A DNA stretch of 64,000 nucleotides from a virus (Duplodnaviria > Heunggongvirae > Uroviricota > Caudoviricetes): the IMG/VR virus record IMGVR_UViG_3300011008_000003; one strand, written 5' to 3'. The notes below the pieces were generated by a model, which made no database searches, was not told the origin of the DNA, and was given only the letters and a program-made list of their open reading frames with translations. Below, piece after piece: positions 40,703 through 62,360 of the stretch; the first letter of the stretch is position 1, and the number at the start of each line of letters is the position of its first letter. Position numbers and translations under genes: made by a program.

Positions 40703-40739
40703 TGATTGATCCTTTGTTGATGTTTGTTTCAGTTAGTAT

Positions 40740-41480: not shown

Positions 41481-41483
41481 TTA

Positions 41484-44900: not shown

Positions 44901-44959
44901 TTTATCTTTCCTTTGTAAATTCAATCGTACATTCGATTGTTGGTTTAAATATAGAAACT

Positions 44960-45991: not shown

Positions 45992-47338
45992 CTATAAATC
46001 GAATACGTTCACGTCTGGAGCCGGCTGTGGCGGTTCAGGCAGACTGTTAGAACCGAAATCTTCATCATTGTTGTTAAAAGACTTCAGGTCATAAATCTTC
46101 TGTTTTTCAATATCGACACCGATAGTTACAATCGGAGCCTTAGGCATACCATAACGAGTCTTAAGAAGCTTGACAGTATACATATCTGCAGCTTTCATTT
46201 CAGGTGTCTGTGTAACGCCGAAAATAGCGTCAGCCTTCATGGTCTGGCCGAATGAGTCAGCTGCGTCGTCAAGTCCCATTTCAGCCTTGCCATAACCACC
46301 GCGGTTAGCCTGCATAGCAGAAATAATCGGAATCTGTTCCACAAGACCGATAGAACGAACCTGAGCGGCGATTGCACGAAGCTTAGAGTTATCGTTCATA
46401 TTCGGGTCGACACGTCCATCCGGGACCATACATCCGATATAGTCAAGCATAATGACATCTGGATTAAAGTCATGCTTTTCTTTATATTCCTTGAGCAATG
46501 CCTTTAACTGGAGCGAGCTTACACAGTATTCTGGATATTCCTTAATCTTCAGCTTGTTATGACCAATCTGGCCTAACATCTTAGTAAACAAACGCATATA
46601 TGCTTCTTTATTCAAGGCCTTTAGTTCATTCTGTGTCTTGTCCATAAGATTCTGCATGATACGTTGACCGATTTTAACTTCCGGGTCTTCGAATGTAACA
46701 TACAAGACTCTCTTGCCAGCCAGAAGCATAGCAGAAGCCATGGAACAAAGGAACAAGGTTTTACCGATATTGGTCGGAGCCATGATAAGAGTCAATGACT
46801 GTTCGTGAACACCTCCGTGAATCATCTCGTCAAGTGTCTTACAGCCAGTAGGAATAACCTTTTCGTTGGTAACAAAATTATTATAGATTCGTTCTGGCTC
46901 TTCGAAGAACGAGAAACCAATCTGAGTATCGAAGGTAAAAGATTCAGCATACGCGACTTCTTCTGCGAAACTGCCAGTATGCTTGTTATTTACACAGTAG
47001 GTAGATATATTTTCTTGGATCTTGCGTAATAGACGTTTTCTGACGAAATCCTGTATTTCGTCAAGCATGAATTTCGTATTGACATCGCTATCTGGGATTG
47101 CCATACATTTGTTGAATGCGGCTACTGTTCTTTCGTCGGACAACAGCCTACGCATTTCAATGACATTGGGCATCGCAGAAAATCTTGCATTATAATCGCT
47201 TATAGCATTTACTATGTACTTATGATCTAGGTTTATAAACCAGTCGGAATTCAATTCCGGCACAACTTTTGAAGAAACGTCACTATTTGCGTAAAGTGCT
47301 TTGATTATTACTTGTTCGAATTCTATATCTGTAGTCAT
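45992..47338 (-). CDS. replicative DNA helicase (DnaB/T4 gp41-like)
   Basis: Walker A APTNIGKT, Walker B IMLDYIG and RecA-like C-terminal domain motifs. 448 aa. Confidence 0.85.
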   Translation of the reverse strand: MTTDIEFEQVIIKALYANSDVSSKVVPELNSDWFINLDHKYIVNAISDYNARFSAMPNVIEMRRLLSDERTVAAFNKCMAIPDSDVNTKFMLDEIQDFVRKRLLRKIQENISTYCVNNKHTGSFAEEVAYAESFTFDTQIGFSFFEEPERIYNNFVTNEKVIPTGCKTLDEMIHGGVHEQSLTLIMAPTNIGKTLFLCSMASAMLLAGKRVLYVTFEDPEVKIGQRIMQNLMDKTQNELKALNKEAYMRLFTKMLGQIGHNKLKIKEYPEYCVSSLQLKALLKEYKEKHDFNPDVIMLDYIGCMVPDGRVDPNMNDNSKLRAIAAQVRSIGLVEQIPIISAMQANRGGYGKAEMGLDDAADSFGQTMKADAIFGVTQTPEMKAADMYTVKLLKTRYGMPKAPIVTIGVDIEKQKIYDLKSFNNNDEDFGSNSLPEPPQPAPDVNVFDL

Positions 47339-47500
47339 TTTATTTCTCCGGGTTATTTATTAAAGTGTAACCCGTTGTTTGCAAATATAGAAAAAAGCCC
47401 GTGTATGATACAGGCTTTTAGATTTTATCTGATTTTTTAATAAATATGGATATTTTCACCTATATAAATATATAAAAAATTTTTTACTATATTTGTAGAT

Positions 47501-48310
47501 ATGACCAGTGAAGTTGTTTTATTAGTGAAAACGTCATATTATCATGATACCGTAGAATGGATTGAATGGTATAAGAAGTTGGGATTCGACCATATAACCA
47601 TATATGACAATGAATCTACGATTGACTTCAATACAATAATAGCAAATTATTCAGATTATGTGACATATAATAAAATTGTTGGATTTCCTGACCAACTAAA
47701 TTTGGAATTACAACATTATAGACAGTGCAAGTATGATTATGTCTTTTTTGCAGATGCCGACGAGTTTTTATGGATAGATCCAAAATATAAAAATATAAAT
47801 GAATATCTCGATACAAAATGTCAGAATAATGACATTCATCAGCTGGCTATCTACTGGGTAAAAATTTCAGCAAATCCATGTCCAGAAGCACGTAAAGATA
47901 AACCAGAATCTACTCAAGTTAAAACTTTTAAATATGTTCAAGAAATCGAAAGCGAAAGCTGGATAAAATGTTTTTACAGAACCGGTTTAGATTTTATGTC
48001 TATGCATTGCCATTTCGCATTACCGTATGATAAAATGTATGATACTAATGGAAACTCGATAGTTTTACAAGATATTCGAAAGTGTAATTATAATTATAAT
48101 ATGGATGACGCCATTTTGTATCATTATTTCCATAAATCATGGGAAGAATTCAAAACCAAAATGCAATCCACTTATGCACCAATGAATACGACCTATAAAG
48201 AACTGTACCCGAAATATCAGTTTAAGACATATTATAATTATGCAAGACTGTTATATAGAATAGGATATAATACGTATGATAATAAAATCGAAAAATATCT
48301 CTATGCATAA
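47501..48310 (+). CDS. GT-A glycosyltransferase, GT92/DUF23-like (paralog 1)
   Basis: VEWIEWY...GFDHITIYDNES and DxD FFADADEFLW blocks; very AT-rich gene. Confidence 0.55.
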   Translation: MTSEVVLLVKTSYYHDTVEWIEWYKKLGFDHITIYDNESTIDFNTIIANYSDYVTYNKIVGFPDQLNLELQHYRQCKYDYVFFADADEFLWIDPKYKNINEYLDTKCQNNDIHQLAIYWVKISANPCPEARKDKPESTQVKTFKYVQEIESESWIKCFYRTGLDFMSMHCHFALPYDKMYDTNGNSIVLQDIRKCNYNYNMDDAILYHYFHKSWEEFKTKMQSTYAPMNTTYKELYPKYQFKTYYNYARLLYRIGYNTYDNKIEKYLYA

Positions 48311-49790
48311 TATCGATTATAATGCAATCAATATTCGCTATGAACACGAAGAACCGATTGACGATTACGTTAGTGCAGAAATTACTGAAAATGGAGAATT
48401 ACGATATTGGAATCATATTTTAAGTAAGGTATTTAAATCAGTAAAGAAAGCGCCAAAGATTGAGTTAAAATATTGTTATTATGAATGGTCAAATTGGATT
48501 GATGTATTATGCGGTATTATTCAAGATATTAACAAGATGAATTTTATTCCAAGGATAACAATTCACGTTTATGGGAATATTGAACCGCCGGATATTTTTT
48601 TAAAATATTTTACTGTAACAAAAATAAATAATGTAAAAATAGGTTATCGTGATATGATTATTAAAAGTAGTAATTTTACTAATGACTGGTATATTATACA
48701 AGAAACTCTGACTAGTGTTGATGAATTACTTTCAAAGTATAATAACACAGAAATACGAGATATTCCGTTTAAGTATGATTCTGAAATTTTGTTAATTACG
48801 AATTCAAGAAGATATAATTTTTCGGATTTGGTATATTGGATTTTTTATCATAAAAATGTATTGAAATTTGATAATATTGTGATTGTTCATAATAACAATG
48901 ACGATAAAGATGATCAGCTTGCATTGATGCAAATCTGTAAGTATTTCAATGTTGATTATTTTTATGAACCAGTTGGTTCACAGAAGTTAATTTTTAATAA
49001 GTATCAGAAACTTTCTGAAGCAAAGTGGATGATTTGTATTGATGAAGACGAATTCATTTATTTACCGGATAATATGACAATAAATGAATTGCTAAGCAAA
49101 TATAAAAATGAATATAAGTTAACTTTTGATATGATTAATTTTTATAGCGATGTAATGCTTAGAAATAAGAATAGCAAAACATTTCTTGAAAATTTCAGAT
49201 ATATTTGTCTTGATGATTCAAATAAAAATTTGATTTTCCAGAATGAAACAGATTCATATGCATTAACCCTGTATAAGACTTTTGTTAATAATAAGTTATT
49301 TCATTATTTGATAAACGCCACGAACTCTTTGGTTGATAGAACATTATTTAGTGTTAAGAATGAAAACAATAATAATATTGTTACATTAATTCCAGAGGAT
49401 AAAAAGGTTCTTCGTGCTTTTCATAAGCCTGAAATTGGACTTATTCATAATCCATTTACAATGTATAATAAAGAGATGATTAAGTCTTATAATTTAACGT
49501 CTAAGCTATATGTTAAATATTCATATGAATATGATAAACCGAATGTTTCTCTATTAAATAATCCATTTATAGCGCATTATAAATATAGAACTTTGGAAGA
49601 ATACGCCAATAAAGTTAAGTATAATAAGTTTATGGATGTAACAAGTTGCTATTATGATACAAACTATAAGCTTGATAAATTCTGTAACTTATATGAACAT
49701 AAGACATTCTTTAAGGTTGATAAGTTATATGAAAAATATTTGACCCATGTCAATGAATGGAATATTATAAGACATGAAATCAACTGGTAA
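48276..49790 (+). CDS. GT-A glycosyltransferase, GT92/DUF23-like with N-terminal extension (paralog 2)
   Basis: LVYWIFYHKNV...IVHNNND and DxD ICIDEDEFIY in the C-terminal half. Confidence 0.5.
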   Translation: MIIKSKNISMHNIDYNAINIRYEHEEPIDDYVSAEITENGELRYWNHILSKVFKSVKKAPKIELKYCYYEWSNWIDVLCGIIQDINKMNFIPRITIHVYGNIEPPDIFLKYFTVTKINNVKIGYRDMIIKSSNFTNDWYIIQETLTSVDELLSKYNNTEIRDIPFKYDSEILLITNSRRYNFSDLVYWIFYHKNVLKFDNIVIVHNNNDDKDDQLALMQICKYFNVDYFYEPVGSQKLIFNKYQKLSEAKWMICIDEDEFIYLPDNMTINELLSKYKNEYKLTFDMINFYSDVMLRNKNSKTFLENFRYICLDDSNKNLIFQNETDSYALTLYKTFVNNKLFHYLINATNSLVDRTLFSVKNENNNNIVTLIPEDKKVLRAFHKPEIGLIHNPFTMYNKEMIKSYNLTSKLYVKYSYEYDKPNVSLLNNPFIAHYKYRTLEEYANKVKYNKFMDVTSCYYDTNYKLDKFCNLYEHKTFFKVDKLYEKYLTHVNEWNIIRHEINW

Positions 49791-49801
49791 GGCTCTATAT
49801 T

Positions 49802-50851
49802 ATGATATTGAAAAACAAAAATTACAATATTAAAATTTTTGATAGTGATAGTTATAATAATTATGATTTTAACCAACCGATAGATAAAGAAAAACTATAC
49901 AATACAGAACTAATTTTAATAACGAATTCTAATAATCTGAACGAATTGTTATATTGGCTGTATTGGCATATAAATGTTATTGGTTTTGAACATGTTGTAT
50001 TAATTGATAATTCCAAAGAAAATTTAATCCGACCGTTTATTTCTAAATTTGGAAATTCAATAACATATGTCAAGAAACCTGGCGTAATATCACAATGTGA
50101 AATTTATAATTATTATGTAAAAAATTCAAAATCTAAATGGGTATTGCCATTAGATGATGATGAATATTTGTATATATCTGATAAATTTGACCATAGTATA
50201 AATACATTTATCAAAAAGAATGATTTACCTGTTTACAAATATGCTTTTAACTGGCATATGATGTTTAGTGATACTATAATTGAAAAGAATAATGATTTTT
50301 ATGTAAATCTGTATCAAAGGGAATGCCCGATCGATTATGTAACATTCGACTGTTTTTGGTGTATCAAAACAATGGTCAATACCGAAATCAATCACCTATA
50401 TGTTTCTGATAATGGGGAAATACCGTTTGAATTAAAGCTAAATAATCTCAATATGGATAAAAACTATAGACATACAGATTCTGGATTTTCATTATTCAAA
50501 GTAAATCATATGGGGTCTGTACATAATCCTATAAGTAAGCTGAATAATACTTTCATGCATGCCTATAATTATAATACAGACGATATGACTGTAGGTTTAT
50601 TCTGTAATAACAAGGATAGGAATAGAGATATTTATATTGCACATTATAAGTATAGAGATTTAGATAGTATAAAGTTTAAGATAAAGAATTTTCATTTTAC
50701 TGATATAATGAAACAATATATCAATGACGCCTATAATTTGGATAATTATTATAATGCATTCAATATTATAAGACCATCATTGGTAAAAAATGATGATTTA
50801 TACAATTTATCAAATGAATTTGATTTGGGAAATAAAGTAAAAGCTATATAA
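49802..50851 (+). CDS. GT-A glycosyltransferase, GT92/DUF23-like (paralog 3)
   Basis: LLYWLYWHINVIGFEHVVLIDNS and DxD LPLDDDEYLY. Confidence 0.5.
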   Translation: MILKNKNYNIKIFDSDSYNNYDFNQPIDKEKLYNTELILITNSNNLNELLYWLYWHINVIGFEHVVLIDNSKENLIRPFISKFGNSITYVKKPGVISQCEIYNYYVKNSKSKWVLPLDDDEYLYISDKFDHSINTFIKKNDLPVYKYAFNWHMMFSDTIIEKNNDFYVNLYQRECPIDYVTFDCFWCIKTMVNTEINHLYVSDNGEIPFELKLNNLNMDKNYRHTDSGFSLFKVNHMGSVHNPISKLNNTFMHAYNYNTDDMTVGLFCNNKDRNRDIYIAHYKYRDLDSIKFKIKNFHFTDIMKQYINDAYNLDNYYNAFNIIRPSLVKNDDLYNLSNEFDLGNKVKAI

Positions 50852-50864
50852 TTTTATATAGCTT

Positions 50865-51725
50865 TTATTTTAAATATTTGAGTGTAGAATCTACAGTTAA
50901 ATCTAACATATATGGAAACTGTTTAGATTTCGTTAAATAATCTTCAATATTAGAATCCATATAATAACGTTTATTGTTTATCAAATTTTGTTTAATCAAT
51001 GATGTTTTTATTTTATCATTATATTCATCAATCGTAGTTATTCTATAATGGTACAATCTTAAATAATAGTCATATATTGTTCTTGCAAACATTTTATGCC
51101 TATTGTCTATCTCAAAAACATCAGTAGTTGTTATTGTTTCAAAATTTTTAAGACCATGATGAACACTATCGAAATCATTATTGTCATATAATATAACCGG
51201 CTTCATTTCTATAAATGCAACATTTATACGAAATTTACAGAGATCATTATAATTCATATTTTCTGGTCTAGTAGCCAATAAATTTTTTGACATCATATTT
51301 GTCCACGGTACACCGAGTGAATGTGTTTTAAACTTAATGAAATCGTGCATCACGCATTCTTTAAACGAATTAAATTTAAAACTATCATACCACCAAAATT
51401 CATCAAAATCCGGAATAATAATTATATCATTTATATTAGGTTTTATAATATCAGATATTACAATATTATAATTGTCAATCTGATTAGTTTTTGAATACAA
51501 TTCATTTATTAATACAATATTATTATAATTTTTGATATAATCAGAAATATTAAGTTCACTATTGTCATTAAGAATTATAATCTTATCGCACTTGATAAAT
51601 TTTTCATACCAAGTTAACCACATGTTAAAATCAGCAGCATTAGTACCTTTTATGATAAGAATGGCATATAATTTTTGAATTTCTTTAGAAATTTTTATAT
51701 TTGTATTTTTATAGAATAAAGCCAT
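50865..51725 (-). CDS. GT-A glycosyltransferase, GT92/DUF23-like (paralog 4)
   Basis: NMWLTWYEKF...IIILNDNS and DxD IIPDFDEFWW. Confidence 0.5.
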   Translation of the reverse strand: MALFYKNTNIKISKEIQKLYAILIIKGTNAADFNMWLTWYEKFIKCDKIIILNDNSELNISDYIKNYNNIVLINELYSKTNQIDNYNIVISDIIKPNINDIIIIPDFDEFWWYDSFKFNSFKECVMHDFIKFKTHSLGVPWTNMMSKNLLATRPENMNYNDLCKFRINVAFIEMKPVILYDNNDFDSVHHGLKNFETITTTDVFEIDNRHKMFARTIYDYYLRLYHYRITTIDEYNDKIKTSLIKQNLINNKRYYMDSNIEDYLTKSKQFPYMLDLTVDSTLKYLK

Positions 51726-51726
51726 A

Positions 51727-52860
51727 TTAACAAGTAGTGAAAAATTTTTCTAAATTATTTATATAGTCTTGATAATTCTCTTTTTGATGAATAAAATTAT
51801 AATTTCGTTCCTGACTTTTTATATCAAGCACGTTATCAAAAATATTAGGATTCAAATCATCAATATTGAATATATCCGTATGTTTAGAATAATATTGATA
51901 GTTTATTCCGTCTAAAAATATTTTCTTACCGGTATAAAGCATATGGTTTATATTTCCAATTGCTTCTTGACGTAATTGTCCAAATATGGCGCAAGAACAA
52001 TTATCAATTAGCTTAAAGTATTCATATTTTCCGATATAGTTTTCGATAAATATCGGATTAACATACATTAAAGCTTTACAGAATTCTTTTATTTTATTTT
52101 TATATTTTTCTGAATCAAACTGTTCAAATTTTCCATTTGGATATGCCAATGGAATATATGCATTACATTTGATTTTTCTTTCTTCCAAAATATTTAAAAT
52201 ATCGATGTGATTGTTTGTCGGTAATAGACAGTGACCGACAAGAATATTATTATTCAAAGATTCATTAGGTACAAATTGAATATTTGCCTTTGGATCCATA
52301 TAATCAAATGGAAAAGGTTTTACATTTTGAAATTTTTTAGAAACTAATTCAAACTCATTCGGTAATACAGTCGAAATATACGAAATTTTATTTAAGAAAC
52401 TATCGTATTGCCATTGCTTTCTAAGAATTTTATTGTACAACCATTTAAACGGATATTTAACCTTATATAACAAATTGTTATTCATTACATTGGCATATTG
52501 GCGAGTCAAGGGCTTAAATAAATCTATATCGACCGCCATTTTTAAAATATCATTTTTGTCGGAGTATATGTCATAACCCCATGTTATTCCGATAATTTTA
52601 GGTTTTAGCTTTAACAGTTTATATTTGTGCTCTAAGAAATAAAGAGAATGGAAAATTACAAAATCAAATTCATTATCGTTAATATAATTGATTAAATCCG
52701 TTAAATTACGGTAGTTTTTTACTTTTGTATTTTTTATACAATTATATTTGTCATATTTTAGATTTGTAAAAAATTCAGATTTTATGTTTAAATGCGAAAA
52801 AATATCGATAGCCAAATCGATAAATTTTTCGTCTGGACATAAATGACAAATCTTTAACAT
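51727..52860 (-). CDS. WecF-like glycosyltransferase (GT56, 4-amino-deoxyhexose transferase family) candidate
   Basis: Blocks FVIFHSLYF, GITWGYDIY, ILVGHCLLPTNNHIDIL and CAIFGQLRQEAIGN resemble my recollection of E. coli WecF (FFFHGQF, WHIWGADLY, ILVGNSGDRSNEHIAAL, FIFARQQGIGT). Confidence 0.45.
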   Translation of the reverse strand: MLKICHLCPDEKFIDLAIDIFSHLNIKSEFFTNLKYDKYNCIKNTKVKNYRNLTDLINYINDNEFDFVIFHSLYFLEHKYKLLKLKPKIIGITWGYDIYSDKNDILKMAVDIDLFKPLTRQYANVMNNNLLYKVKYPFKWLYNKILRKQWQYDSFLNKISYISTVLPNEFELVSKKFQNVKPFPFDYMDPKANIQFVPNESLNNNILVGHCLLPTNNHIDILNILEERKIKCNAYIPLAYPNGKFEQFDSEKYKNKIKEFCKALMYVNPIFIENYIGKYEYFKLIDNCSCAIFGQLRQEAIGNINHMLYTGKKIFLDGINYQYYSKHTDIFNIDDLNPNIFDNVLDIKSQERNYNFIHQKENYQDYINNLEKFFTTC

Positions 52861-52863
52861 GGA

Positions 52864-53895
52864 TTAGTAAATATTGATTTTAGAAGTCTTTTTTAGAATT
52901 TCAATTATTGTCAGGATTTCTTCTTTAGTTTCATGATCCAATTCAATACCGTTCATAAATTCGTTCAATCTGAATTCAGTATCGGCAAAATTGAATATAA
53001 TTGCACTGAAATTATACGGTTCAATAAATGCAGGGAAGTTTATAATATCCTTGTAATTATATTTAGAAATAGTGTAGGTTGTTTCCAATTCTATACCATC
53101 TGTATCATGTAAGTTTTTCAGAAATTCAAGGCTTTCTAATAACATTTCCCATTTTGCACCTTTTCTAATTGTTTCAAACAATTCTTTACTAGATGCATCA
53201 ATAGAAATCTTTATAGACTTTATAAGCTTTCTGGTATTCGGGTGAATCTTATTCCATTGTTTCGGTAATAAAATAGCGTTCGTCATAAGCATAATTTCTT
53301 TTAATTCATGTCCGCTTAAATCACTCGACAGAATACTCATATAATTCTTACTAAACAATGCTTCACCATCGCCAGCGATATTTAATGAATGACAATGCTT
53401 GGCATATTCAATTACCTTATCATTAAATTCTTTTGGAATATCGACCTTAGTAATAACATCATCACGACATGTAATACAAGATAAATTGCAAGAAATATCA
53501 TATGCGACTTCAAACCTATAAGGATATGGTTCTGAAAAATCGCCGGTTTCAAATGCATCGACAATTTTCTGTCCATATTCGCCGAAATGGTCAACACAGT
53601 TTTTGGCAGTAAAGAATCTTTCATCTCTCTGAATAAAATTCGGACAATTCAGGCAATGAGAAAAATCATGATTTAAAATTTTCTTTCGAAATTCTCTAGC
53701 TTTTTTTGACTGAAAATATGTATCAAACTTATTAACATCGGGTTCACGATATTCTTCAACTCTGCTTTTATTTTCAATCCAATGTAAACAGCACGGGAAT
53801 AGTCCATCATGCTTCTTAATATTTAATCTTATAAATGGCAAATAGCAAATATGTCTATCTTTTAAGTTATATTTATCTGTCATAATTACATCCAA
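52864..53895 (-). CDS. radical SAM enzyme
   Basis: CNLSCITC (CxxxCxxC) plus additional N-terminal Cys-rich region CYLPF...CCLHW. Confidence 0.6.
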   Translation of the reverse strand: MDVIMTDKYNLKDRHICYLPFIRLNIKKHDGLFPCCLHWIENKSRVEEYREPDVNKFDTYFQSKKAREFRKKILNHDFSHCLNCPNFIQRDERFFTAKNCVDHFGEYGQKIVDAFETGDFSEPYPYRFEVAYDISCNLSCITCRDDVITKVDIPKEFNDKVIEYAKHCHSLNIAGDGEALFSKNYMSILSSDLSGHELKEIMLMTNAILLPKQWNKIHPNTRKLIKSIKISIDASSKELFETIRKGAKWEMLLESLEFLKNLHDTDGIELETTYTISKYNYKDIINFPAFIEPYNFSAIIFNFADTEFRLNEFMNGIELDHETKEEILTIIEILKKTSKINIY

Positions 53896-54650
53896 ACATC
53901 ATCACTCATCGGACTATATTTATAGCCTTTCTTAATGGCTTCTTCCAAAGATAAATCTTTAAATTCCTGAGCATAGAACCAACGCCCGCTTGTCTTATCA
54001 TCTATCAAAGCACCTACAAGTGCTCCTGGAATAACGCTTTCTACAGGATTCAAACCAGTATTATTATTAAATCCGGTTTTCAAAGAACCAGGGTCAAGAA
54101 CATTCATTATAACGTCAGTTCCGGTCAATTTATTGGCGTAATCTTTAACATATTTTTTCAATGCAGCCTTTGCACATGAATATGCGGCATATTCTGGCTG
54201 GTTAACTATTCCGCTAACAGTAAATTGAATCCTACCAAAACCTCTATTTATCATTCTGCCAAGAAAATGATATGCAATCTTTACAGGGGCGAAAAAGTTT
54301 ACCGCCATTGCATTATGAAAATCTTCCATAGTATTAGTCGTATAATCTTCAAAATACTGGCTTAGCATTCCAGCATTATTGAAAACAATGTCAACATTTA
54401 CGCCCAATGAATCTATTTTCTTAAGCATGTCGTCAATTTCAAATTCATTTTCTAAATGACAACCGTAAGAAATAGCTGTAATATTCGGATTTATTGTATA
54501 AAGTTCTTTCAATACAGTGTCAGCATTTTCCTGTGTTCTCGCCTGGATAATTATATTTGCGCTAAGCTTTGCCATTTCATGAGCAATAAGTCTTCCAACA
54601 CCACGAGAACCACCAGTAATCAATACATATTTGTTTTTTACATCAATCAT
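53886..54650 (-). CDS. short-chain dehydrogenase/reductase (SDR)
   Basis: TGGSRGVG cofactor-binding motif and YSCAK (YxxxK) catalytic motif. Confidence 0.85.
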   Translation of the reverse strand: MIDVKNKYVLITGGSRGVGRLIAHEMAKLSANIIIQARTQENADTVLKELYTINPNITAISYGCHLENEFEIDDMLKKIDSLGVNVDIVFNNAGMLSQYFEDYTTNTMEDFHNAMAVNFFAPVKIAYHFLGRMINRGFGRIQFTVSGIVNQPEYAAYSCAKAALKKYVKDYANKLTGTDVIMNVLDPGSLKTGFNNNTGLNPVESVIPGALVGALIDDKTSGRWFYAQEFKDLSLEEAIKKGYKYSPMSDDVWM

Positions 54651-55567
54651 AGAGTATATCTTTTGATTAAAATTTGTTCAGTTACACTAATTTGATTATC
54701 TATCGGCAAGTTATTAAAACAGTTCATGTGATTACTTATCATATCATATCCTGTAGTAAGCGAAAATGCAACGCCTGCAGAGAAACGAGAATTAATATCG
54801 ATAAGATAATAGTTATCACCGTTGTGAATGAATTCCATACATAAAGAACCGTTTATATTCAATTTATTTCCGATATAAGAAACAATAGAAGCCAGTTTCT
54901 TATCATCGAACATTTTGACAGTTAATCCCGCTCCATTGCTTGTTCTGATAAGTTCTTCACGCATGACCATAGAATCTTTATTATCTTTGGCGGAACGGCA
55001 ATAATCAACCGTACAAACATTACCCTTGACATATTGCTGAACAATATACTTATATGGATTATTAAGAACCATTAATTGTTCAAATTCGGGCTTTATCAAT
55101 AAACCTTGGCTACTACGGCCATTTATCAATTTCGCTACGACCGTATTATATCTGATTTTATAATCCAATAATTTCCATGTAGTCGGAACAGTAACCATGT
55201 CGTCATGTTCAAAATACTTATAGAGCTCATACTTATTTCTGATAATCTTAAGTATATCATCTTCAGGCATACATAATGTAATTCCAGCGAATTGATTTCT
55301 ATTTCTGTTTATGACGTCGATTTCTAAATCGGTCAAAGGTACGATATATTTAATATCATGCTTCTTGCATGTATCAATAAGGAAATTACAGTATTTTTCC
55401 TCTTCGTCCGCATAAGGCGATTGATAAAAATAATCGCAGAGCGTACTTTCATAATGCCAATCTTTTGGATATATGTCACAACCGACAACAAGATTGTCAG
55501 AATTATTTAATTGCGTAATTACGCATTCGGCAGACATTGAACCTATTGCTGTTACTAAGATATTCAT
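54647..55567 (-). CDS. ATP-grasp ligase
   Basis: MNILVTAIGS N-terminal Rossmann-like start, central ATP-grasp fold and LIDINSRFSAG motif. Start taken at the internal Met. Confidence 0.65.
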   Translation of the reverse strand: MNILVTAIGSMSAECVITQLNNSDNLVVGCDIYPKDWHYESTLCDYFYQSPYADEEEKYCNFLIDTCKKHDIKYIVPLTDLEIDVINRNRNQFAGITLCMPEDDILKIIRNKYELYKYFEHDDMVTVPTTWKLLDYKIRYNTVVAKLINGRSSQGLLIKPEFEQLMVLNNPYKYIVQQYVKGNVCTVDYCRSAKDNKDSMVMREELIRTSNGAGLTVKMFDDKKLASIVSYIGNKLNINGSLCMEFIHNGDNYYLIDINSRFSAGVAFSLTTGYDMISNHMNCFNNLPIDNQISVTEQILIKRYTL

Positions 55568-55671
55568 GTACGTAAATATAGAAAATTTTATGATTTTTGT
55601 AAAAAACTTAATATTTTTCAAATTTTTTACTATTATTGTATTTGAATATAAATATTTATGCTTGAGGTTAT

Positions 55672-56583
55672 ATGCTGGTTGTAAAGAAAGAAAAAGACCT
55701 TGTTAAGTCAAAACATATATTAGACGTACTTGATAGATATAAAAAAGTTTTTAATTGCGATTGTAATATTAAATATCCGCAAAAATTTACCGAGAAAATG
55801 CAATGGCTTAAGGTATATGATAATAACCCGTTAAAGACATACTGTTCTGATAAAATAAATCTCAGAAATTATTGTAAGGACATATTGGGTCAAGATATAT
55901 GTCCAAAAATATATTCAGTATATGGTAACGTTTCAAGAATTGATATTGCATCGGTTCCAAAAATTTGTGTTATAAAATGTAATCATGGCAGTGGATATAA
56001 TATTGTACTGAACAATAGGAGTTTAACTCCACAAGATATGGAAACATTGGAAAGATGGTATCAGACAGATTTTTCAACCGTCGCACAGGAAAGCCATTAT
56101 AAAGCAATAAATCATAAGATTTTTACAGAAGAACTATTGAATATTGAATGCGAATATAAAGTCTGGTGTTTTCATGGAATGCCGAAATTTACCCAATGTA
56201 TTTTTTATGATAATCTTGGAAATACATTGTATAAACCTGACCCGGCATATAGAAGAATTTGGTCTCGCCATGATGCATTAATCAATACTGAATTTGAATT
56301 GATAAAGGGATGGCAGTTTAATATCGGTCGTCCGAGCTATAACGAAAATAAATACTTAAAACATTATTATAAAAGATATTGCAGGACCGAATATTATAAT
56401 ATGCTATTAAGATATTCAAAAATGCTTTCTGAAAAATTTAATTTTGTAAGGGTTGATTTTTATAAAACATTTGATAATAAGATTTATCTGTCAGAATTAA
56501 CTTTTATTCCTTCTGCCGGATTTATGCATTTCAATAGTGAACATACAGATTATCAAATTGGAAAATTGTTAAATATAGGTTAA
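55672..56583 (+). CDS. TupA-like ATP-grasp protein (PF14305-like)
   Basis: N-terminal FTEKMQWLKVYDNNPLKTYCSDKINLRNY resembles the TupA-like family consensus as I recall it. Confidence 0.4.
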   Translation: MLVVKKEKDLVKSKHILDVLDRYKKVFNCDCNIKYPQKFTEKMQWLKVYDNNPLKTYCSDKINLRNYCKDILGQDICPKIYSVYGNVSRIDIASVPKICVIKCNHGSGYNIVLNNRSLTPQDMETLERWYQTDFSTVAQESHYKAINHKIFTEELLNIECEYKVWCFHGMPKFTQCIFYDNLGNTLYKPDPAYRRIWSRHDALINTEFELIKGWQFNIGRPSYNENKYLKHYYKRYCRTEYYNMLLRYSKMLSEKFNFVRVDFYKTFDNKIYLSELTFIPSAGFMHFNSEHTDYQIGKLLNIG

Positions 56584-56587
56584 GATT

Positions 56588-57520
56588 ATGTTAATAAAAC
56601 ACGCGAAAAAGATAATAATGGATTGTGCATTGCCGACAGATACCTTGATTGTTCGTCTATTGGATCCTACTCATATCGCAGTTGCACATTGCGGGCAAAG
56701 AGAGAAAGAACTTGTTAACCCATTGAGTTTCGATGAAGTCTATGCTATGTCTTCAGATGATTTCTGGGAATATTTGCAAGATTCATATAAGAAAATTCCA
56801 GAAAATCATAAATGGGAACCAGATTATTATTGCTATACCAAAAATAAGATATGTATGTATAATGATAAATATGTCAAGAAAGTTATAATCTCGACATCTA
56901 AGCATTGTAATAATCTTTGTAAGATGTGTATGGTTTCATCAAATACATATCTAAATACGGAAACCGATAAAAAACTATATTTTAGTATTTTGGAGAAACT
57001 GAAAGGACATGGAATTTTCGAAATAGGCCTTACTCATAATGGCGAGCCGTTTTTGTATAAGAAAGAAGCTTTCGATTACATGGAATCATTAAAAGCAAAA
57101 ATTGACTGTACACAAATTTGTATAACTTCCAATACTTCGCTTCTTAACAGTGACGATATACAACGATTAAAACGTATAAAAGATATTCAGGGAATCGACA
57201 TGTTCTTTATGGCTTCATGTAGTGCTATTACGGCAGAAACCTATAAACAAGTACATGGCACACCATATTTTGAAACCGTAAAAAATAATATTCTCGAACT
57301 TAATAAAAATAATATATTATCCTGTATAAGTTTTGTGATTCAAAGAGAAAATATTCATGAACTTGAATTTCTAAAAGATTATTGGTATTCTCAAGGCGTA
57401 ACTGTTCCGTTATATGCCAGAATCCTCGTTGGGTTTGACGGTGCCGAAATTGCAAAAATGCCGGAATATCAGAGATTTTTACAAGTTCGTGAAAAACTGG
57501 GTCCAGAAATATTTAAATGA
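56588..57520 (+). CDS. radical SAM enzyme
   Basis: CNNLCKMC CxxxCxxC cluster in the first third of the protein. Confidence 0.6.
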   Translation: MLIKHAKKIIMDCALPTDTLIVRLLDPTHIAVAHCGQREKELVNPLSFDEVYAMSSDDFWEYLQDSYKKIPENHKWEPDYYCYTKNKICMYNDKYVKKVIISTSKHCNNLCKMCMVSSNTYLNTETDKKLYFSILEKLKGHGIFEIGLTHNGEPFLYKKEAFDYMESLKAKIDCTQICITSNTSLLNSDDIQRLKRIKDIQGIDMFFMASCSAITAETYKQVHGTPYFETVKNNILELNKNNILSCISFVIQRENIHELEFLKDYWYSQGVTVPLYARILVGFDGAEIAKMPEYQRFLQVREKLGPEIFK

Positions 57521-58554
57521 TAACTGTAACTAAACCTAAATTACCGAATCTATCAGAATTAATGCCGATGTTGGAAAACATCTGGCATTCTGGTATTATA
57601 ACGAACAACGGTTCATATTGCAAAGAATTTGAACAAAGATTATCAGAATATCTCGATACTCCGTATGTTTCCGTTGTATCTAATGCCACAAACGGCTTAT
57701 TATTAGCCCTGAAGGCCTTAAATATATCAGGGGATGTAGTTACTAGCCCATACAGTTTTGCGGCCACAGAGAACGTTTTACGCTGGTTAAATCTCAATCC
57801 GATAATGGTCGACACCGATGAGCTCGGTAATATAGATCCGGATAAGATTGAACAGGCAATAACGAAGAATACTACGGCAATTCTGCCTATTCACGTATAT
57901 GGAAGACCGTGTGATACAGAAAAAATTCAGAATATAGCAAATAAGTATAATCTGAAAGTTATTTACGATGCAGCACATGTTTTTGGTGTCAAGGTTGATT
58001 TCGGTGATGTCAGTGTCATAAGCATGCATGCGACGAAGGTATTCAATACATGTGAAGGCGGAATTGTAATATCTAAAACAGCGGAAATAAAAAAGAAAAT
58101 TGACTTACTCCGTAATTTTGGGATAGAGGATGAAGAAACTGTAAGCGAATACGGAATCAATGCGAAACTGGATGAAATACGAGCCGCGATTGGTATATTG
58201 AATCTAAAAACAATAGATTCAGATATTATGGAACGTAAAGCAATTTTCGAAAAATATAGAACTGGTTTAAAAGATGTTCCAGGAATAAGAACCTTGGACA
58301 ATAGTTATAACGGTTCTTATTTTCCGATATTCATTGACGAAAAATTATACGGACATAATAGAGATTATCTTTATGAAATGTTTAAATCGGAAGGAATACT
58401 GGCAAGAAAATATTTTTACCCGATTCGATATAAACTTGAAATATCGTCCAGGCTTTCAAATACGGTTTTGTGTTTACCGATATATCCAGGTCTTGAAGAT
58501 ATAACGATTGAAAAGATTGTGAATCTAATTCATAACATTAGAAAAACGGATTGA
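57517..58554 (+). CDS. DegT/DnrJ/EryC1/StrS-family PLP-dependent sugar aminotransferase (WecE-like)
   Basis: SPYSFAATENV, IHVYGRPCD, DAAHVFG and the PLP-lysine context SMHATKVFNTCEGG. Confidence 0.85.
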   Translation: MITVTKPKLPNLSELMPMLENIWHSGIITNNGSYCKEFEQRLSEYLDTPYVSVVSNATNGLLLALKALNISGDVVTSPYSFAATENVLRWLNLNPIMVDTDELGNIDPDKIEQAITKNTTAILPIHVYGRPCDTEKIQNIANKYNLKVIYDAAHVFGVKVDFGDVSVISMHATKVFNTCEGGIVISKTAEIKKKIDLLRNFGIEDEETVSEYGINAKLDEIRAAIGILNLKTIDSDIMERKAIFEKYRTGLKDVPGIRTLDNSYNGSYFPIFIDEKLYGHNRDYLYEMFKSEGILARKYFYPIRYKLEISSRLSNTVLCLPIYPGLEDITIEKIVNLIHNIRKTD

Positions 58555-58591
58555 GCTTGTCAATCCGTTATTAGATAATAATATTTGATTT

Positions 58592-59320
58592 TTAATAATC
58601 TTTAGCTAATTCTTGTTTAATTTGTTCAGTTGTATAGCCTTTAAAATCTTCATAATATGACTGTGCATTATATTTACCAAAGGCCCTTACTAATAGATTA
58701 AATCGATTTTTTAAGTCCTCTAAACGAGTTATTATTTCTTTACGTGATAATTCAGAGGAAAGATCTGCAATGACATCATAAGCTTTTTCTATTGTAGTTT
58801 CAAGACTATCGGATAAATCAATATCATCTAAATGTAATTCAAAAACATTAATTATATACGAGTCATAACTGTCCCCAGTATACCAAAATGTTGGTACTGA
58901 ATTTCTCGTTTTATACTCTGGGAAAATATCAGAAACATCTGTACCTATAAAAGTATCAAATGTATCATTACGTCTTCCATAAGCAAATGCAGGTCCTATT
59001 ATTATACGATCATCATTATAAATTACTTCAAAAGTATTTATTATAGTACCTTTTTCAGCAGATAATCTTTCAAAAACATGTTCCAATATGGCACGTTTTC
59101 GGCCAGTTTTATCTTTTACATCGCCAGCATTATAGAAAAGTGTCCGTTTGTCTTCTAGATCTTGTCTTGCAGATTGTACTTCATCGTCATTAGTCCATCC
59201 TGAATGTGGTCTTATATATTTAAAATCCCTTTCATATCGAGTTGTCCTATAAGGACGAGGACGTGCTTCGACGAGATAGTTATTTTCTTTAAGAATTCGT
59301 TTTGCTGTTTCTAAATCCAT
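58592..59320 (-). CDS. hypothetical protein
   Basis: 242 aa ORF convergent with the aminotransferase gene. Confidence 0.4.
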   Translation of the reverse strand: MDLETAKRILKENNYLVEARPRPYRTTRYERDFKYIRPHSGWTNDDEVQSARQDLEDKRTLFYNAGDVKDKTGRKRAILEHVFERLSAEKGTIINTFEVIYNDDRIIIGPAFAYGRRNDTFDTFIGTDVSDIFPEYKTRNSVPTFWYTGDSYDSYIINVFELHLDDIDLSDSLETTIEKAYDVIADLSSELSRKEIITRLEDLKNRFNLLVRAFGKYNAQSYYEDFKGYTTEQIKQELAKDY

Positions 59321-59423
59321 AATTTTCTCTATTTATTTTATATTATTTATAGTTAATCTAATAAAAATCAGATATTTTAACCTTATTGAATATGTTTACG
59401 AAAATTTACTATATTTTACATAT

Positions 59424-60298: not shown

Positions 60299-60332
60299 GA
60301 AAACCGGGATTAAGTCCCGGTTTTTATTTTTA
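60299..60332. terminator. bidirectional terminator (ccggga-ttaag-tcccgg)
   Basis: Hairpin with flanking A-run and T-run between convergent genes. Confidence 0.7.
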
Positions 60333-62360
60333 TTGAACAATCGCTTCAAGTGTTCCAGATATTGGTAATCCAACATTGAATTCATATATTGTATCACCGT
60401 CAGCTGAAATATTCGTAGGCCAAACAGTAACATCGTATATACCTGCACTAGTAGAAGATGCTGCAGTAATATAACTGCCATCAGTCCAGTCAATTGTGTC
60501 GTTATAACCAGAATGAATAACTTCATCTGGAGTTTCATAGTAATACTTATAGCTATTAGACTTAGGCGTAGCGAATTCTGGAGAAGTAGCACTCACACCG
60601 AAGTAAAATTTATTATCTTCGACATAACCAAAAGGTTGAATATCTTCAATAGAATATACCTTGAATGCTAATGAAACTTCATGCGATTTAACAGTCTTAG
60701 TTTCATCATAAACCTTAGTCCAGTAAACCATCAGATAATGTTCACCAGGTTCAAGGTCCTTAATACTAATATCGAATCCACTAGTGCCGTTCACATCAAT
60801 AATTGTGCCGTTATCTATGCGATAATGCATAGTGCAATCGCCGAAGCTATATCCGAAGCTCAAATGAATATTATTTTCAGAAAAATCAATAGAAGATGGA
60901 AGTGCTTCAGCAAACTTAGGAGCTGCCTTGACTTCGGTAACGAATGTCAAACCTTCAGTATTGTTATTACCGACAGGCGTAGCAGATAACATACATGGAA
61001 TAATATCTGTTCTAACATCTTCATAATTATATGGATCATAAGTCAAATGATTGCAATATAAAAGCCCGGCTTCGACACTTGCAGGAGAACATTCGTCAGT
61101 AAATGTATAACCGCTTGTTCCAGAAGCTTCGATTTCATACTTAGTTGCCAAAGCCAATGCTTCAGTTGGACCGTATGCAGAAATGATAACGGGTTCTGTT
61201 GCACATTCATCGATTTGAATTTCGACATCTTTTCGCATGTTACAGTCTTGAATTTCAGTATCACCGTTCATAAAATGAATAGAATTATCAACTGTCTGTT
61301 GGTCATGTTCATAATAGTCAGTAGGTTCGAAATTCATTTCGATTTCATCAAGATACGGAAGACGTTCAACAGTAATAGATGTCTTTTGCGACAGGTTATC
61401 AAGCTTATCAAATGCAGCAACCTTACAATTATGTGTACCGTAAGAAATATCCATATCGCTTAAGTTAATGGCACTTGTATAAGATGTCAATTTTACTTCA
61501 TCATTCTCAAGAACATAATAACCAGAAATATATTCTGCCATTTTCTTTGGTTTAGTCGTAGCTGTTGCAGTATCACGCTGATTATATGTACTTGCATCAA
61601 GGTCAAATAAGTCCATATTGCTATTAAATGTACCGCCGATTTCAACAGGTGCGGTATATGCCAATTCATAATCATTCTTAGCATAAGCCCTAACAGTATA
61701 TGTACCGACGTCTTTATCTAAAATAAATGATGGAACATCATTTGCGGAAACAAATTTTTGGATAGTTCCGTCAGGATTAGTAACTTCATAACCGAATTCA
61801 AATGTATGTGTAATATCATTGAGTTCATCAAAATCGCCTGAAACTTTCTGCGTAGAAAAACCATAATCTGCATCAGCATAGGTATGATTTCTTGTTATAG
61901 TAACATTAAATCCGTTAATCTTATCTTCCATCGGCAAGACAGTCACAGTTATAATGGACGGAGAACCGGCAGCGATGTCACCTTCAGGATATACGGAGAT
62001 TTTATATGTGCCTGGACGTAAGAACGGAGAAATAATAGTTTCTCGAACTTCTGAATGTCCTTCTTCAGTTTCATAGACAGTCGTAACAGAAGTAGAAGTA
62101 TTCTTACATTTAATCTTATAATAATTGACATCGGGAATATGTTCACCTTCGACATCCCATGTCAACTTATCACAGTTAACATCAATACCCTCTGCATATT
62201 CAAGATTTGTAGCAGATACGTTACGAACTGGGTCAATTTCGGCTTCACGCATAAAACGAGACAGCTGAAGGTTTTCCCAGAGTTGGCGGAGTTCTTCTTC
62301 AGTGAAGTTTTGGTCTGTACTAGCAACAAGATTTATTAACGGTTTTTTCATGAATACCAC
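60330..62360 (-). CDS. large structural protein with Ig-like/beta-sandwich repeats (decoration or fibre protein candidate)
   Basis: 676 aa, Thr/Ser/Tyr-rich beta-strand-like composition, minus-strand TATAAATA upstream. Confidence 0.45.
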   Translation of the reverse strand: MVFMKKPLINLVASTDQNFTEEELRQLWENLQLSRFMREAEIDPVRNVSATNLEYAEGIDVNCDKLTWDVEGEHIPDVNYYKIKCKNTSTSVTTVYETEEGHSEVRETIISPFLRPGTYKISVYPEGDIAAGSPSIITVTVLPMEDKINGFNVTITRNHTYADADYGFSTQKVSGDFDELNDITHTFEFGYEVTNPDGTIQKFVSANDVPSFILDKDVGTYTVRAYAKNDYELAYTAPVEIGGTFNSNMDLFDLDASTYNQRDTATATTKPKKMAEYISGYYVLENDEVKLTSYTSAINLSDMDISYGTHNCKVAAFDKLDNLSQKTSITVERLPYLDEIEMNFEPTDYYEHDQQTVDNSIHFMNGDTEIQDCNMRKDVEIQIDECATEPVIISAYGPTEALALATKYEIEASGTSGYTFTDECSPASVEAGLLYCNHLTYDPYNYEDVRTDIIPCMLSATPVGNNNTEGLTFVTEVKAAPKFAEALPSSIDFSENNIHLSFGYSFGDCTMHYRIDNGTIIDVNGTSGFDISIKDLEPGEHYLMVYWTKVYDETKTVKSHEVSLAFKVYSIEDIQPFGYVEDNKFYFGVSATSPEFATPKSNSYKYYYETPDEVIHSGYNDTIDWTDGSYITAASSTSAGIYDVTVWPTNISADGDTIYEFNVGLPISGTLEAIVQ

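Follow-up and report, generated by a model that had tools for sequence, protein, structure and literature searches.

What does an AT-rich block of sugar-modification genes make in the genome of a T4-like phage, and on which molecule does its product end up? The question is raised by positions 47501–58554 of a 64-kb stretch of phage DNA (64,000 nucleotides of the virus record IMGVR_UViG_3300011008_000003). We refer to the whole stretch as the window and to the block of glycosyltransferase (GT) and biosynthesis genes as the island; its open reading frames (ORFs), together with the one that follows, were numbered ORF1 to ORF12 by position (Table 1). The block is a hypervariable, replaceable glycan-biosynthesis cassette, serotype-like in character, in a clade of T4-like phages. 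That it builds a strain-variable glycan by the donor-sugar logic described below is probable. We tentatively place this glycan, a strain-specific oligosaccharide with an N-acylated 4-amino-4,6-dideoxyhexose, on virion proteins, the most likely of the acceptors considered, although we would not give it an even chance.

Exchange of the cassette between close relatives

The island was recovered, sequence-identical, from three samples assembled independently. These assemblies agree on revised starts for ORF8 (55567) and ORF6 (53883), and the 504-aa ORF2 was called identically in all three. The region is packed with 11 consecutive ORFs in three transcription units, ORF1–3 on the plus strand, ORF8–4 on the minus strand and ORF9–11 on the plus strand. 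Its GC content is 0.288 compared to 0.378 for the rest of the window, of which it is the lowest-GC 11-kb stretch. The first-pass annotation, made from the sequence alone, had singled out the block for its AT-richness and had named gp41-like helicase, gp32-like and dCTPase-like genes as its neighbours, and both observations hold. The island sits between the gp41-like helicase gene and a DHH/RecJ-like gene.

We compared the window with related loci (L001 and so on). Where the flanks are 92–97% identical, at least five alternative island contents were nevertheless observed, including an in-frame deletion. In L001/L026 the flanks are 97% identical, ORF1 is 96% and the DegT end 98% identical (C-terminal 154 aa, in L026), and the interior is swapped. 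That interior holds a 637-aa GT fusion, further GT-like genes, four radical SAM paralogues and diverged copies of the GT56, ATP-grasp and TupA genes (56, 65 and 56% identity to the window, respectively). L002, with flanks 92% identical, has an island of just 4.7 kb, in which a methyltransferase gene is joined by other GT-like genes. L024 matches the window at 95% up to and including ORF1 and then carries a different island of at least 10 other genes, at least four of them radical SAM genes; its ORF1 is 65% identical and its interior differs. L017, which was placed by its neighbouring genes, has still other content between the same DHH and gp41 genes.

The deletion form removes nearly the whole block. 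L022 and L023 miss window positions 47815–57645 (9.8 kb), position 47814 being joined to 57646 at a 14-nt repeat of ORF1 and ORF11. The outcome is an in-frame fusion, GT92(1–105)::DegT, of 407 aa (P0085; L022 10001–11224), and ORF12 is also gone. This form was found on three contigs that come from one assembly of ENA and one of Logan, and the natural deletion indicates that the cassette is dispensable. ORF12, which is absent from L002 and L022 and has no match in Pfam, PHROG or NCBIfam, belongs to the variable block.

In more distant relatives, homologous islands are found between the DHH gene and gp15/terminase, or adjoining terminase, and the ORF3 homologues there are 35–44% identical. In the lineages nearest the window the DHH side is constant and the opposite neighbour varies. 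As the cassette stands beside terminase or tail genes in relatives, its helicase-adjacent position in the window means little. This position had been taken as a pointer to DNA modification by analogy with T4, which does carry beta-gt and gene 42 adjoining uvsX and gene 41; the argument is not supported by the placement of the cassette in the relatives. Every variant is AT-rich (GC 0.22–0.31 versus 0.31–0.41 in the flanks). Additional genes in the sister islands encode a Methyltransf_24 protein, a GH8/BcsZ-like enzyme, a PgaB-like deacetylase and weak GT2- and TOD1-like proteins; judged by family, this gene set is the repertoire of a complex heteropolysaccharide. We concluded that related phages exchange the cassette while its ends stay conserved.

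A feature of the translation starts was also observed. Thirty-six of the 88 island proteins, from unrelated families, begin with M-[IL]-I-x, mostly MIIK followed by a K/N-rich stretch, compared to 2 of 139 proteins outside the islands in these same loci (Fisher p 2.5e-15). The count covers the islands of the window, L001, L002, L008, L010 and L015–L018, and composition alone predicts about 2–3%. Examples in the window are ORF2 (MIIKSK, 48276), ORF3 (MILKNK, 49802) and ORF10 (MLIKHA, 56588). The Ile codons vary among these starts, which places part of the signal in the peptide itself. Possible meanings are a feature of translation initiation, a tag for sorting or assembly, and a recombination joint.

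Enzyme families and the donor sugar

Profile searches of each ORF against Pfam and NCBIfam confirmed the 11 consecutive genes and nearly all the families named in the first-pass annotation; the short-chain dehydrogenase/reductase (SDR), the canonical and TupA-like ATP-grasp proteins and the two radical SAM proteins were all matched by Pfam. Its set of four paralogous DxD GT-A transferases was real in motif and paralogy but turned out to be uneven. The GT92 profile (PF01697) is matched by ORF1 only, and ORF3 and ORF4 fall below the Pfam cut-off. ORF1 matches PF01697 with E 7e-12 (46 bits; cut-off 23) and PF13704 (Glyco_tranf_2_4) with 42 bits (cut-off 27.5). The other three match PF13704 only: ORF2 above the cut-off (E 2e-8, 34.9 bits), ORF3 (E 7e-6, 26.9 bits) and ORF4 (E 1.3e-3, 19.7 bits) under it. 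In BLASTP comparisons within this set, ORF2 and ORF3 are 28.5% identical over 333 aa (E 4e-22), and ORF1 matches ORF3 (E 8e-8) and ORF4 (E 5e-4). The translations of all four contain D-x-D-E-[FY], and D85, D87 and E88 are invariant in the ORF1 family alignment. An AlphaFold model of ORF1 (pLDDT 88.5, pTM 0.87) gave top Foldseek matches that are all GT-A (SpsA, SunS, TarP and heparosan synthase; E ~3e-6, with TM-scores of just 0.3–0.5), and its fold neighbours also include TarS, RmlT and the peptide S-glycosyltransferase ThuS. The predicted structure of ORF1 thus has the GT-A fold.

The N-terminal domain of ORF2 exists in relatives as a separate gene of 106–120 aa, always after the ORF1-type gene, and its family has just 4 representatives among 1.84e9 proteins. 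A model of this domain (pLDDT about 85 for residues 40–117) gave no significant fold match (best E 0.018). It bears some likeness to the first half of a GT-A fold, which was too weak and was rejected as evidence.

The GT-A families were detected in this phage clade only. In 5.8e9 proteins the ORF1 family has 14 homologues, two of which were looked up and lie in phage contexts (P0075 and P0085), and the ORF3 family has 21, the five looked up being on T4-like phage contigs. The same restriction applies to the radical SAM family, which comprises 20 paralogues over 8 loci with CxxxCxxC and four further invariant N-terminal Cys residues. This family and the GT92-like superfamily make up most of the remaining island genes. 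ORF6 scores 84.8 bits (E 6e-24) and ORF10 21.8 bits against the NCBIfam model N_Twi_rSAM (NF033640; cut-off 170). The best solved relatives of the radical SAM profile are SkfB, viperin, MoaA, cytosylglucuronate decarboxylase (BlsE), anSME and BtrN. Several of these act on nucleotides or sugars, SkfB is peptide-modifying, and none gives a specific assignment. Radical SAM genes alternate with GT-like genes (~250–330 aa) in L024 (10001–20807), L015 (4122–7915) and L018 (13153–16088), and a single island can have as many as four radical SAM genes. This alternation suggests enzyme pairs, each adding and tailoring one sugar.

Several of the remaining genes are predicted to supply the donor sugar. 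ORF11 matches DegT (PF01041) with E 3e-78 and 264 bits and has the motif SMHATK with the lysine that binds pyridoxal phosphate (PLP). It had been described as a DegT/WecE-type aminotransferase. The DegT part is correct, and the WecE part is not: among solved structures DesI (2po3; E 1e-55) is well ahead of all other sugar aminotransferases, and the NCBIfam scores are 233 bits for DesI (equivalog cut-off 650) and 88–107 bits for WecE. The ORF10 end and the ORF11 start overlap by 4 nt, so that a radical SAM gene is translationally coupled directly 5' of a DesI-like gene, an arrangement reminiscent of DesI/DesII in desosamine synthesis. ORF10 has no match to the NCBIfam DesII family and belongs to the clade-specific four-Cys family instead; the analogy was kept as a lead only. 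ORF8 scores above the gathering thresholds of ATP-grasp_3 (PF02655, 50.9 bits) and PylC-like_N (PF21360, 35.7 bits) and is predicted to be an N-acylating amidoligase. ORF9 also exceeds the gathering score (PF14305, E 3e-24, 86.5 bits). ORF5, described earlier as a WecF-like GT56, has no Pfam match of its own. It matches the NCBIfam WecF model with E 1e-18 and 67.5 bits against an equivalog cut-off of 457, and homologues 42–66% identical to it carry PF07429. By these scores it is a WecF homologue and not an equivalog, and it is predicted to be the donor-specific transferase for an N-acyl-4-amino-4,6-dideoxyhexose. The SDR (ORF7) was seen in the window-type variant only. Sequence searches of solved structures gave no match for ORF1, ORF5 (also searched as a profile) or ORF9, and only a weak CPSase-like match for ORF8.

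We observed that the DegT, PylC-like ATP-grasp, GT56 and TupA-like ATP-grasp genes are inherited as one module. All four are present in the window, L001/L026, L008 and L018, and all four are absent from L002, L010, L017 and the readable part of L024. L015 has three of the four, its contig being cut at the DegT side. An alignment scan with GT56 over one genome per prokaryotic species placed the closest cellular homologues in five Fibrobacter species (40–42% identity), followed by a Bacteroidales metagenome-assembled genome (MAG), a Serratia MAG and Flammeovirga (29–32%). In the Fibrobacter chromosomal contigs (L033–L037; 57–346 kb, GC 0.42–0.49) the gene order is DegT, ATP-grasp, GT56, as in the phage. 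The module genes there are 40–56% identical to their phage counterparts, and the ATP-grasp of two Fibrobacter MAGs, at 54–57%, is as close to the phage enzymes as these are among themselves. One locus also encodes a 480-aa protein with about ten transmembrane (TM) segments (Wzx-like) and other polysaccharide-type genes, and a more distant GT56 homologue lies inside a classical Wzx/EpsG locus that also has an N-acylation set. In the Fibrobacter loci, the labels Wzx-like and Glf-like come from TM counts and reading of the sequences, with no source names on record. The shared gene order and identity indicate that the donor-sugar module is common with surface polysaccharide synthesis of the Fibrobacter type, and Fibrobacter is a likely host, judged from three genes.

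The Fibrobacter loci vary among themselves. Three of the five have another ATP-grasp at the place between DegT and GT56, just 20–23% identical to the phage type, and L036 has an extra 412-aa gene between DegT and GT56, a candidate PLP-dependent decarboxylase by the appearance of its sequence. These differences imply that the acyl or amine partner probably differs between strains.

Cellular relatives were found for the donor-sugar module only, and given their GC content and identity to the phage genes, any transfer from cells is old. Horizontal acquisition, as proposed in the first-pass annotation, therefore stands as exchange among related phages, and as acquisition from cells it applies, if at all, to this module and to the distant past.

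Taken together, these families outline a pathway of which we infer the catalytic steps, their order and the acceptor. The host would provide dTDP-4-keto-6-deoxyglucose. No nucleotidyltransferase or dehydratase gene was found in profile searches of the island and window ORFs, and a host dTDP-4-keto-6-deoxyhexose pool, as suggested earlier, is a fair inference. ORF11, by its homology to DesI, would form dTDP-4-amino-4,6-dideoxyglucose, which is the likely rather than the proven exact product. ORF8 would amidate the amine with an amino acid or another carboxylate, as suggested by the chemistry of its family, co-inheritance and synteny, and ORF5 would transfer the N-acylated sugar. The proposal of an N-acylated 4-amino-4,6-dideoxyhexose is supported by the co-inheritance of the module across variants and its synteny in the Fibrobacter polysaccharide loci. 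ORF1, the GT-A protein conserved at the cassette edge, probably begins the chain on the acceptor, and ORF2–ORF4 would lengthen it; its conservation at the edge and the small protein that always comes after it make ORF1 the best candidate for the first transfer. TupA-like ligases form amides on sugar carboxylates (uronic acids) in capsules (PMC11800379), which makes ORF9 the probable source of a second amide decoration. The radical SAM proteins ORF6 and ORF10 and the SDR ORF7 may tailor the sugars. The oligosaccharide would finally end up on virion proteins, so that every phage strain has a sugar coat of its own.

Table 1. Genes and sequence features of the island and its surroundings (window positions)
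Feature	Position	Strand	Description
NrdD and NrdG	16731–20837		Anaerobic ribonucleotide reductase (NrdD, 830 aa) and its activase NrdG
gp56/dUTPase_2-like pyrophosphatase	42599–43375		258 aa; PF08761 E 3e-11; ~4 kb from island
gp32	43776–44924		Same flank as gp41-like helicase
gp41-like helicase	45992–47338		Flank of island
Terminator-like hairpin and T-run	47393–47419	-	gp41/ORF1 intergenic, left cassette boundary; 10-bp stem, 4 GC pairs
T4-type late-promoter motif TATAAATA	47463–47470	+	30 nt 5' of ORF1 ATG
ORF1	47501–48310	+	269 aa; GT92-like GT-A glycosyltransferase, DADE motif; conserved left end of cassette
14-nt microhomology	47801–47814 and 57646–57659	+ (first copy)	Deletion junction; first copy in EYLDT codons
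ORF2	48276–49790	+	504 aa; small clade-specific domain (residues 1–116) fused to GT-A domain, DEDE motif
ORF3	49802–50851	+	349 aa; GT-A transferase, DDDE motif; paralogue of ORF2 C-terminal domain
ORF4	50865–51725	-	286 aa; divergent GT-A-like, DFDE motif; weakest family assignment
ORF5	51727–52860	-	377 aa; GT56 (WecF-like) transferase
TATAAATA motif	51756–51763	-	30 nt 5' of ORF4
ORF6	52864–53883	-	339 aa; radical SAM enzyme, N-terminal Cys-rich (twitch-like) domain, CxxxCxxC
ORF7	53886–54650	-	254 aa; classical SDR, TGGSRGVG and YSCAK; adh_short E 1e-33
TATAAATA motif	53917–53924	-	33 nt 5' of ORF6
ORF8	54647–55567	-	306 aa; PylC-like/CPSase-like ATP-grasp ligase
T4-type late-promoter motif	55647–55654	+	17 nt 5' of ORF9; GAGG follows
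ORF9	55672–56583	+	303 aa; TupA-like ATP-grasp amidoligase; stand-alone protein
ORF10	56588–57520	+	310 aa; clade-specific radical SAM family; four invariant N-terminal Cys plus CNNLCKMC
ORF11	57517–58554	+	345 aa; DesI-like DegT sugar 4-aminotransferase, SMHATK motif; conserved right end of cassette
Terminator-like hairpin	58545–58569	-	Listed with ORF12
ORF12	58592–59320	-	242 aa; acidic protein, part of variable block
Late motif	59344–59351	-	Upstream of ORF12

The acceptor of the glycan

The T4-type late-promoter motif TATAAATA occurs 32 times in the window compared to 11 +/- 3.7 times in shuffled sequences, mostly immediately 5' of structural genes. It precedes the prohead protease, terminase and gp25 genes and is absent before the gp41, gp32, pyrophosphatase and DHH genes. 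At the island it is located 17–33 nt 5' of ORF1, ORF4, ORF6, ORF9 and ORF12, and it is also present 5' of the gene for a 676-aa Ig-like protein. The late-motif signal recurs in L001 and L018. A sigma-70 promoter scan of the island gave no excess (105 versus 95 +/- 9 in shuffled sequences). Among the 28 island proteins of the window, L001 and L002, no 19-residue segment reaches a Kyte-Doolittle mean of 1.6, and hence no TM helix is predicted; the island is also devoid of a flippase (Wzx), a polymerase (Wzy) and a priming transferase. The solubility of all the enzymes, together with the late-promoter motifs, indicates that the glycan is likely to be assembled in the cytoplasm late in infection. 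Late cytoplasmic synthesis, the phage-restricted GT-A families and the dispensability of the cassette together favour an acceptor made by the phage.

The Ig-like protein is encoded at 60330–62360, between the DHH gene and UvsW. It consists of Ig/PKD-like repeats with a weak PKD match and no PHROG, and is present in L005, L017 and L022 and absent in L008 and L016. It is a candidate virion decoration protein and a possible glycan acceptor.

Several points weigh against placing the glycan on the virion. We know of no glycosylated T4-like virion. The late motif is absent 5' of the island genes in the relatives L010, L015 and L017, and AT-rich DNA raises the number of chance matches to a promoter motif. 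The homologue searches used a 5-residue word filter, by which distant cellular GT-A relatives could be missed. The likeness of the donor module to host capsule genes would fit modification of a host glycan equally well. A base-hydroxylating enzyme may lie outside the readable 64 kb of a genome that is possibly >280 kb, a gp56-like NTP pyrophosphatase is present, and GT-A enzymes can glycosylate DNA (bioRxiv 10.1101/2023.12.21.572611).

The second possibility, which we regard as unlikely though well worth weighing, is remodelling of the host envelope. The soluble phage transferases would modify lipid-linked intermediates of host capsule, O-antigen or wall polymer at the inner membrane face, and the host flippase and polymerase would export the altered glycan, leading to superinfection exclusion or sparing the progeny from adsorption to debris; the cassette would vary to match the host serotype. 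The Fibrobacter loci argue for it, as the nearest cellular relatives of the GT56, ATP-grasp and DegT genes occur there in the same order with a 10-TM Wzx-like protein, and so does the distant GT56 homologue in a classical Wzx/EpsG locus. TarP, TarS and RmlT, which the ORF1 model resembles, are soluble cytoplasmic enzymes that glycosylate wall teichoic acid, and TarP is prophage-encoded. Conserved ends with a swapped interior are also typical of bacterial serotype loci. The amidation of capsule uronic acids by TupA-like ligases (PMC11800379) and the GH8 and PgaB-like deacetylase genes of the sister islands point in the same direction. On the other hand, late-type motifs leave little time for the export of a new surface glycan. 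The exclusion functions of T4, for comparison, are early genes. Moreover, for the GT-A and radical SAM families no relatives were detected in cells, the window showed neither an integrase nor a lysogeny gene, and all variants have long been AT-rich, unlike the Fibrobacter loci.

Attachment to DNA, for which the helicase-side position had been invoked, is the least probable of the readings that we weighed, in its general as well as its full form. The glycan would be placed on a hydroxylated or hydroxymethylated pyrimidine before packaging and would vary under the pressure of modification-dependent nucleases; in full, it would be a strain-specific oligosaccharide of N-acylated 4-amino-4,6-dideoxyhexose and radical-SAM-tailored sugars, built late by the GT-A and GT56 enzymes. 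The classic cases of DNA glycosylation are T4-like phages, the gene of a gp56-like NTP pyrophosphatase is 4 kb away, and the genome is incompletely seen. Phage DNA transferases can have GT-A, TarP/JGT-like folds (bioRxiv 10.1101/2023.12.21.572611), and TarP is among the fold matches of ORF1. DNA sugars differ among close T4 relatives, poly-arabinosyl and tri-hexosyl DNA exist, and group transfer to DNA late in development has been described (all from PMC13326640).

The enzymes expected to prepare the acceptor base were, however, not found. Genes for a ThyA/gp42-like enzyme, a TET-type enzyme (5mYOX), a C5-methyltransferase or a nucleotide kinase were found neither in the window nor beside the island variants, nor in 432 kb of related loci. 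No ThyA-family or 5mYOX enzyme was found among the window ORFs of at least 150 aa, a tblastn search with T4 gp42 against the window and 29 related loci (432 kb) gave no match, and no homologue of gp42/ThyA, alpha-gt, beta-gt or Dam was detected in the window or in the 432 kb of related loci. The hydroxymethylase and kinase that the first-pass annotation had proposed to look for thus did not turn up in these sequences. The known DNA-glycosylation transferases are usually clustered with a ThyA homologue or 5mYOX and kinase genes (PMC13326640; bioRxiv 10.1101/2023.12.21.572611). In addition, 4–6 transferases with amidoligases, a deacetylase, GH8 and methyltransferases imply a glycan far beyond any known on DNA, and the GT56 relatives work in lipid-linked polysaccharide synthesis.

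Three arguments on this point were tried and set aside. Restriction-site avoidance, as a proxy for unmodified DNA, is strong in the window (GATC 56 observed versus 195 expected; GATATC 0 versus 31). The T4 control, with its fully glucosylated hmC DNA, shows the same avoidance (GATC 59 observed versus 170 expected), so palindrome avoidance cannot discriminate. Relatives of the window phage avoid GTAC too. The isoelectric points of the transferases, considered as a hint of DNA binding, are uninformative, T4 alpha-gt being likewise acidic. The argument that phage DNA transferases are all GT-B, which would speak against DNA, was dropped because Pyle et al. describe GT-A DNA transferases (bioRxiv 10.1101/2023.12.21.572611).

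Some other cytoplasmic target is also quite improbable. It could be a non-virion phage or host protein, or a small molecule or peptide that is glycosylated through the combined action of radical SAM, ATP-grasp and transferase enzymes. The peptide-modifying SkfB is among the best solved relatives of the radical SAM profile, the ORF1 fold resembles the peptide S-glycosyltransferases SunS and ThuS, and the gene of the small clade-specific protein always comes after the ORF1-type gene; peptides are also matured by ATP-grasp enzymes. Against this, the cassette encodes nothing like a precursor peptide and neither a transporter nor a protease, modules such as DegT/GT56 typically belong to polysaccharide synthesis, and the many GT families suggest an oligosaccharide rather than a small metabolite.

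The three acceptors named in the first-pass annotation remain the right three, re-ordered by the present evidence: virion proteins first, the host envelope second and DNA third.

Related systems, the phage clade and its biology

The comparison with known systems places the cassette between several of them. The Wzx/Wzy surface-polysaccharide loci (Fibrobacter L033–L037) have the same DegT/ATP-grasp/GT56 order, many GTs with tailoring enzymes, conserved ends with an interior swapped between close strains, and AT-richness relative to the genome. Unlike them, the phage cassette has no flippase, polymerase, chain-length regulator, priming transferase or any membrane protein. It also lies in a lytic-type T4-like genome, with late-type motifs and GT-A and radical SAM families confined to the clade. 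As the export and priming functions are absent, the cassette is not a bacterial serotype locus, though it is like the cytoplasmic half of one. The seroconversion modules of the Gtr, Oac and TarP type differ as well, since the island encodes no membrane proteins and the window no integrase, and the likeness to TarP is at the level of fold only.

With the WecE/WecD/WecF set of enterobacterial common antigen, the cassette shares a DegT-family 4-aminotransferase, a GT56 enzyme and an expected dTDP-4-acylamido-4,6-dideoxyhexose donor. It differs in that ORF11 is DesI-like and 25–26% identical to a Salmonella gene annotated as TDP-4-keto-6-deoxy-D-glucose transaminase, that ATP-grasp ligases stand in the place of a WecD-type acetyltransferase, that ORF5 reaches 67 bits against the WecF equivalog cut-off of 457, and that lipid-carrier enzymes are missing from the cassette. 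ORF9 belongs to the same family (PF14305) as the C-terminal domain of Cj1438 from the Campylobacter jejuni HS:2 capsule, which makes an ATP-dependent amide on a sugar carboxylate (PMC11800379); unlike Cj1438, ORF9 is a stand-alone protein, and no dehydrogenase that forms uronic acids is encoded in the cassette.

The T-even, RB69/DLP3, RL38J1 and 5mYOX DNA-glycosylation clusters resemble the cassette in their T4-like background, sugar-nucleotide tailoring, several transferases and variation between close relatives, and a gp56-like pyrophosphatase is present here too. Those clusters hold a ThyA homologue or 5mYOX and a nucleotide kinase, none of which was found at the cassette, and their known glycans have at most three sugars. 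The preprint text of Pyle et al. (bioRxiv 10.1101/2023.12.21.572611) does not mention radical SAM, ATP-grasp or aminotransferase. As the enzyme for the acceptor base was not found, the cassette is not a T-even-type DNA-glycosylation cluster by that defining feature.

By analogy, the nearest functional counterparts are mycobacteriophage virion glycosylation and the lineage-specific glycan clusters of giant viruses. Giant-virus clusters make bacterial-type amino-deoxy sugars and differ between lineages. Their soluble, virus-encoded transferases act in the cytoplasm on virion proteins (PMC4691112), and the same is reported for mycobacteriophages (Freeman et al. 2023, via PMC12619734). The mycobacteriophage systems are small, with two putative transferases in Maravista (same source), and for the present cassette attachment to the virion is a proposal. 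Nothing of comparable size and exchangeability has been described for T4-like phages in the literature that we searched.

The T4-type genes of the window encode a major capsid protein, prohead protease, terminase N-domain, gp25, a gp5-like baseplate protein, UvsW, UvsY, gp32 and gp41, and a walk outward from the window ends in search of a ThyA homologue came no further than UvsX, gp15, a neck protein and RtcB. Among the window ORFs we saw neither an integrase nor any lysogeny gene, and scanning the window for tRNA genes gave none. By megablast, GenBank phages had no match to the island or its flanks, and the nearest isolates are cyanomyophages, with about 30% identity in gp41. Identical or related contigs derive from ruminant and other animal-gut metagenomes. 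Some syntenic contigs are 288–399 kb long, and the visible 64 kb is about a quarter or less of a genome possibly >280 kb. The NrdD and NrdG genes are in keeping with a strictly anaerobic host and with the abundance of radical SAM genes. The gp56-like pyrophosphatase consists of two tandem repeats, each aligning to the C-terminal 55 residues of T4 gp56 (33–36% identity), and had no tblastn match among GenBank phages.

Some other features of the genome were observed. The terminase large-subunit match is confined to a 308-aa N-terminal ATPase-type gene (5215–6141; 304–306 aa in relatives), directly followed by a 595-aa gene without family match (6155–7942); a nuclease domain was not identified. 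Positions 39071–42023 encode a flotillin (FloT-like, 543 aa, Band_7 plus Flot), a phrog_3886 protein and a LemA protein, and are the most GC-rich part of the window (GC 0.41–0.50). This flotillin block is kept in L002, L022 and L024, and a Band_7 gene adjoins the glycan island in L010 and L018. The clade also has mobile elements. The UvsW gene is split by an intein in L022 (14500–17361) and uninterrupted in the window, a homing endonuclease gene is located at 29321–29905 of the window, and in L016 gp15 and terminase are separated by an IS605 OrfB/TnpB-like gene (17323–18492).

Regardless of the acceptor, these data mean that large lytic phages keep and shuffle long glycan pathways of their own, and that two enzyme families, the GT92-like transferases and the radical SAM proteins with four N-terminal Cys residues, have expanded in this phage clade only. 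The recurrent adjacent radical SAM and transferase genes suggest an undescribed sugar chemistry adapted to anaerobes. The link to Fibrobacter, a key fibre degrader of the rumen, offers a testable host for an uncultured phage clade. If the DNA reading were true, the modification would be far more complex than known DNA glycans and would vary like a serotype. If the glycan is attached to the virion, T4-like phages would possess a serotype-like, quickly exchangeable sugar coat, a new axis of phage diversity with consequences for adsorption, for recognition by immune systems and grazers, and for behaviour on plant fibre and mucus in the gut.

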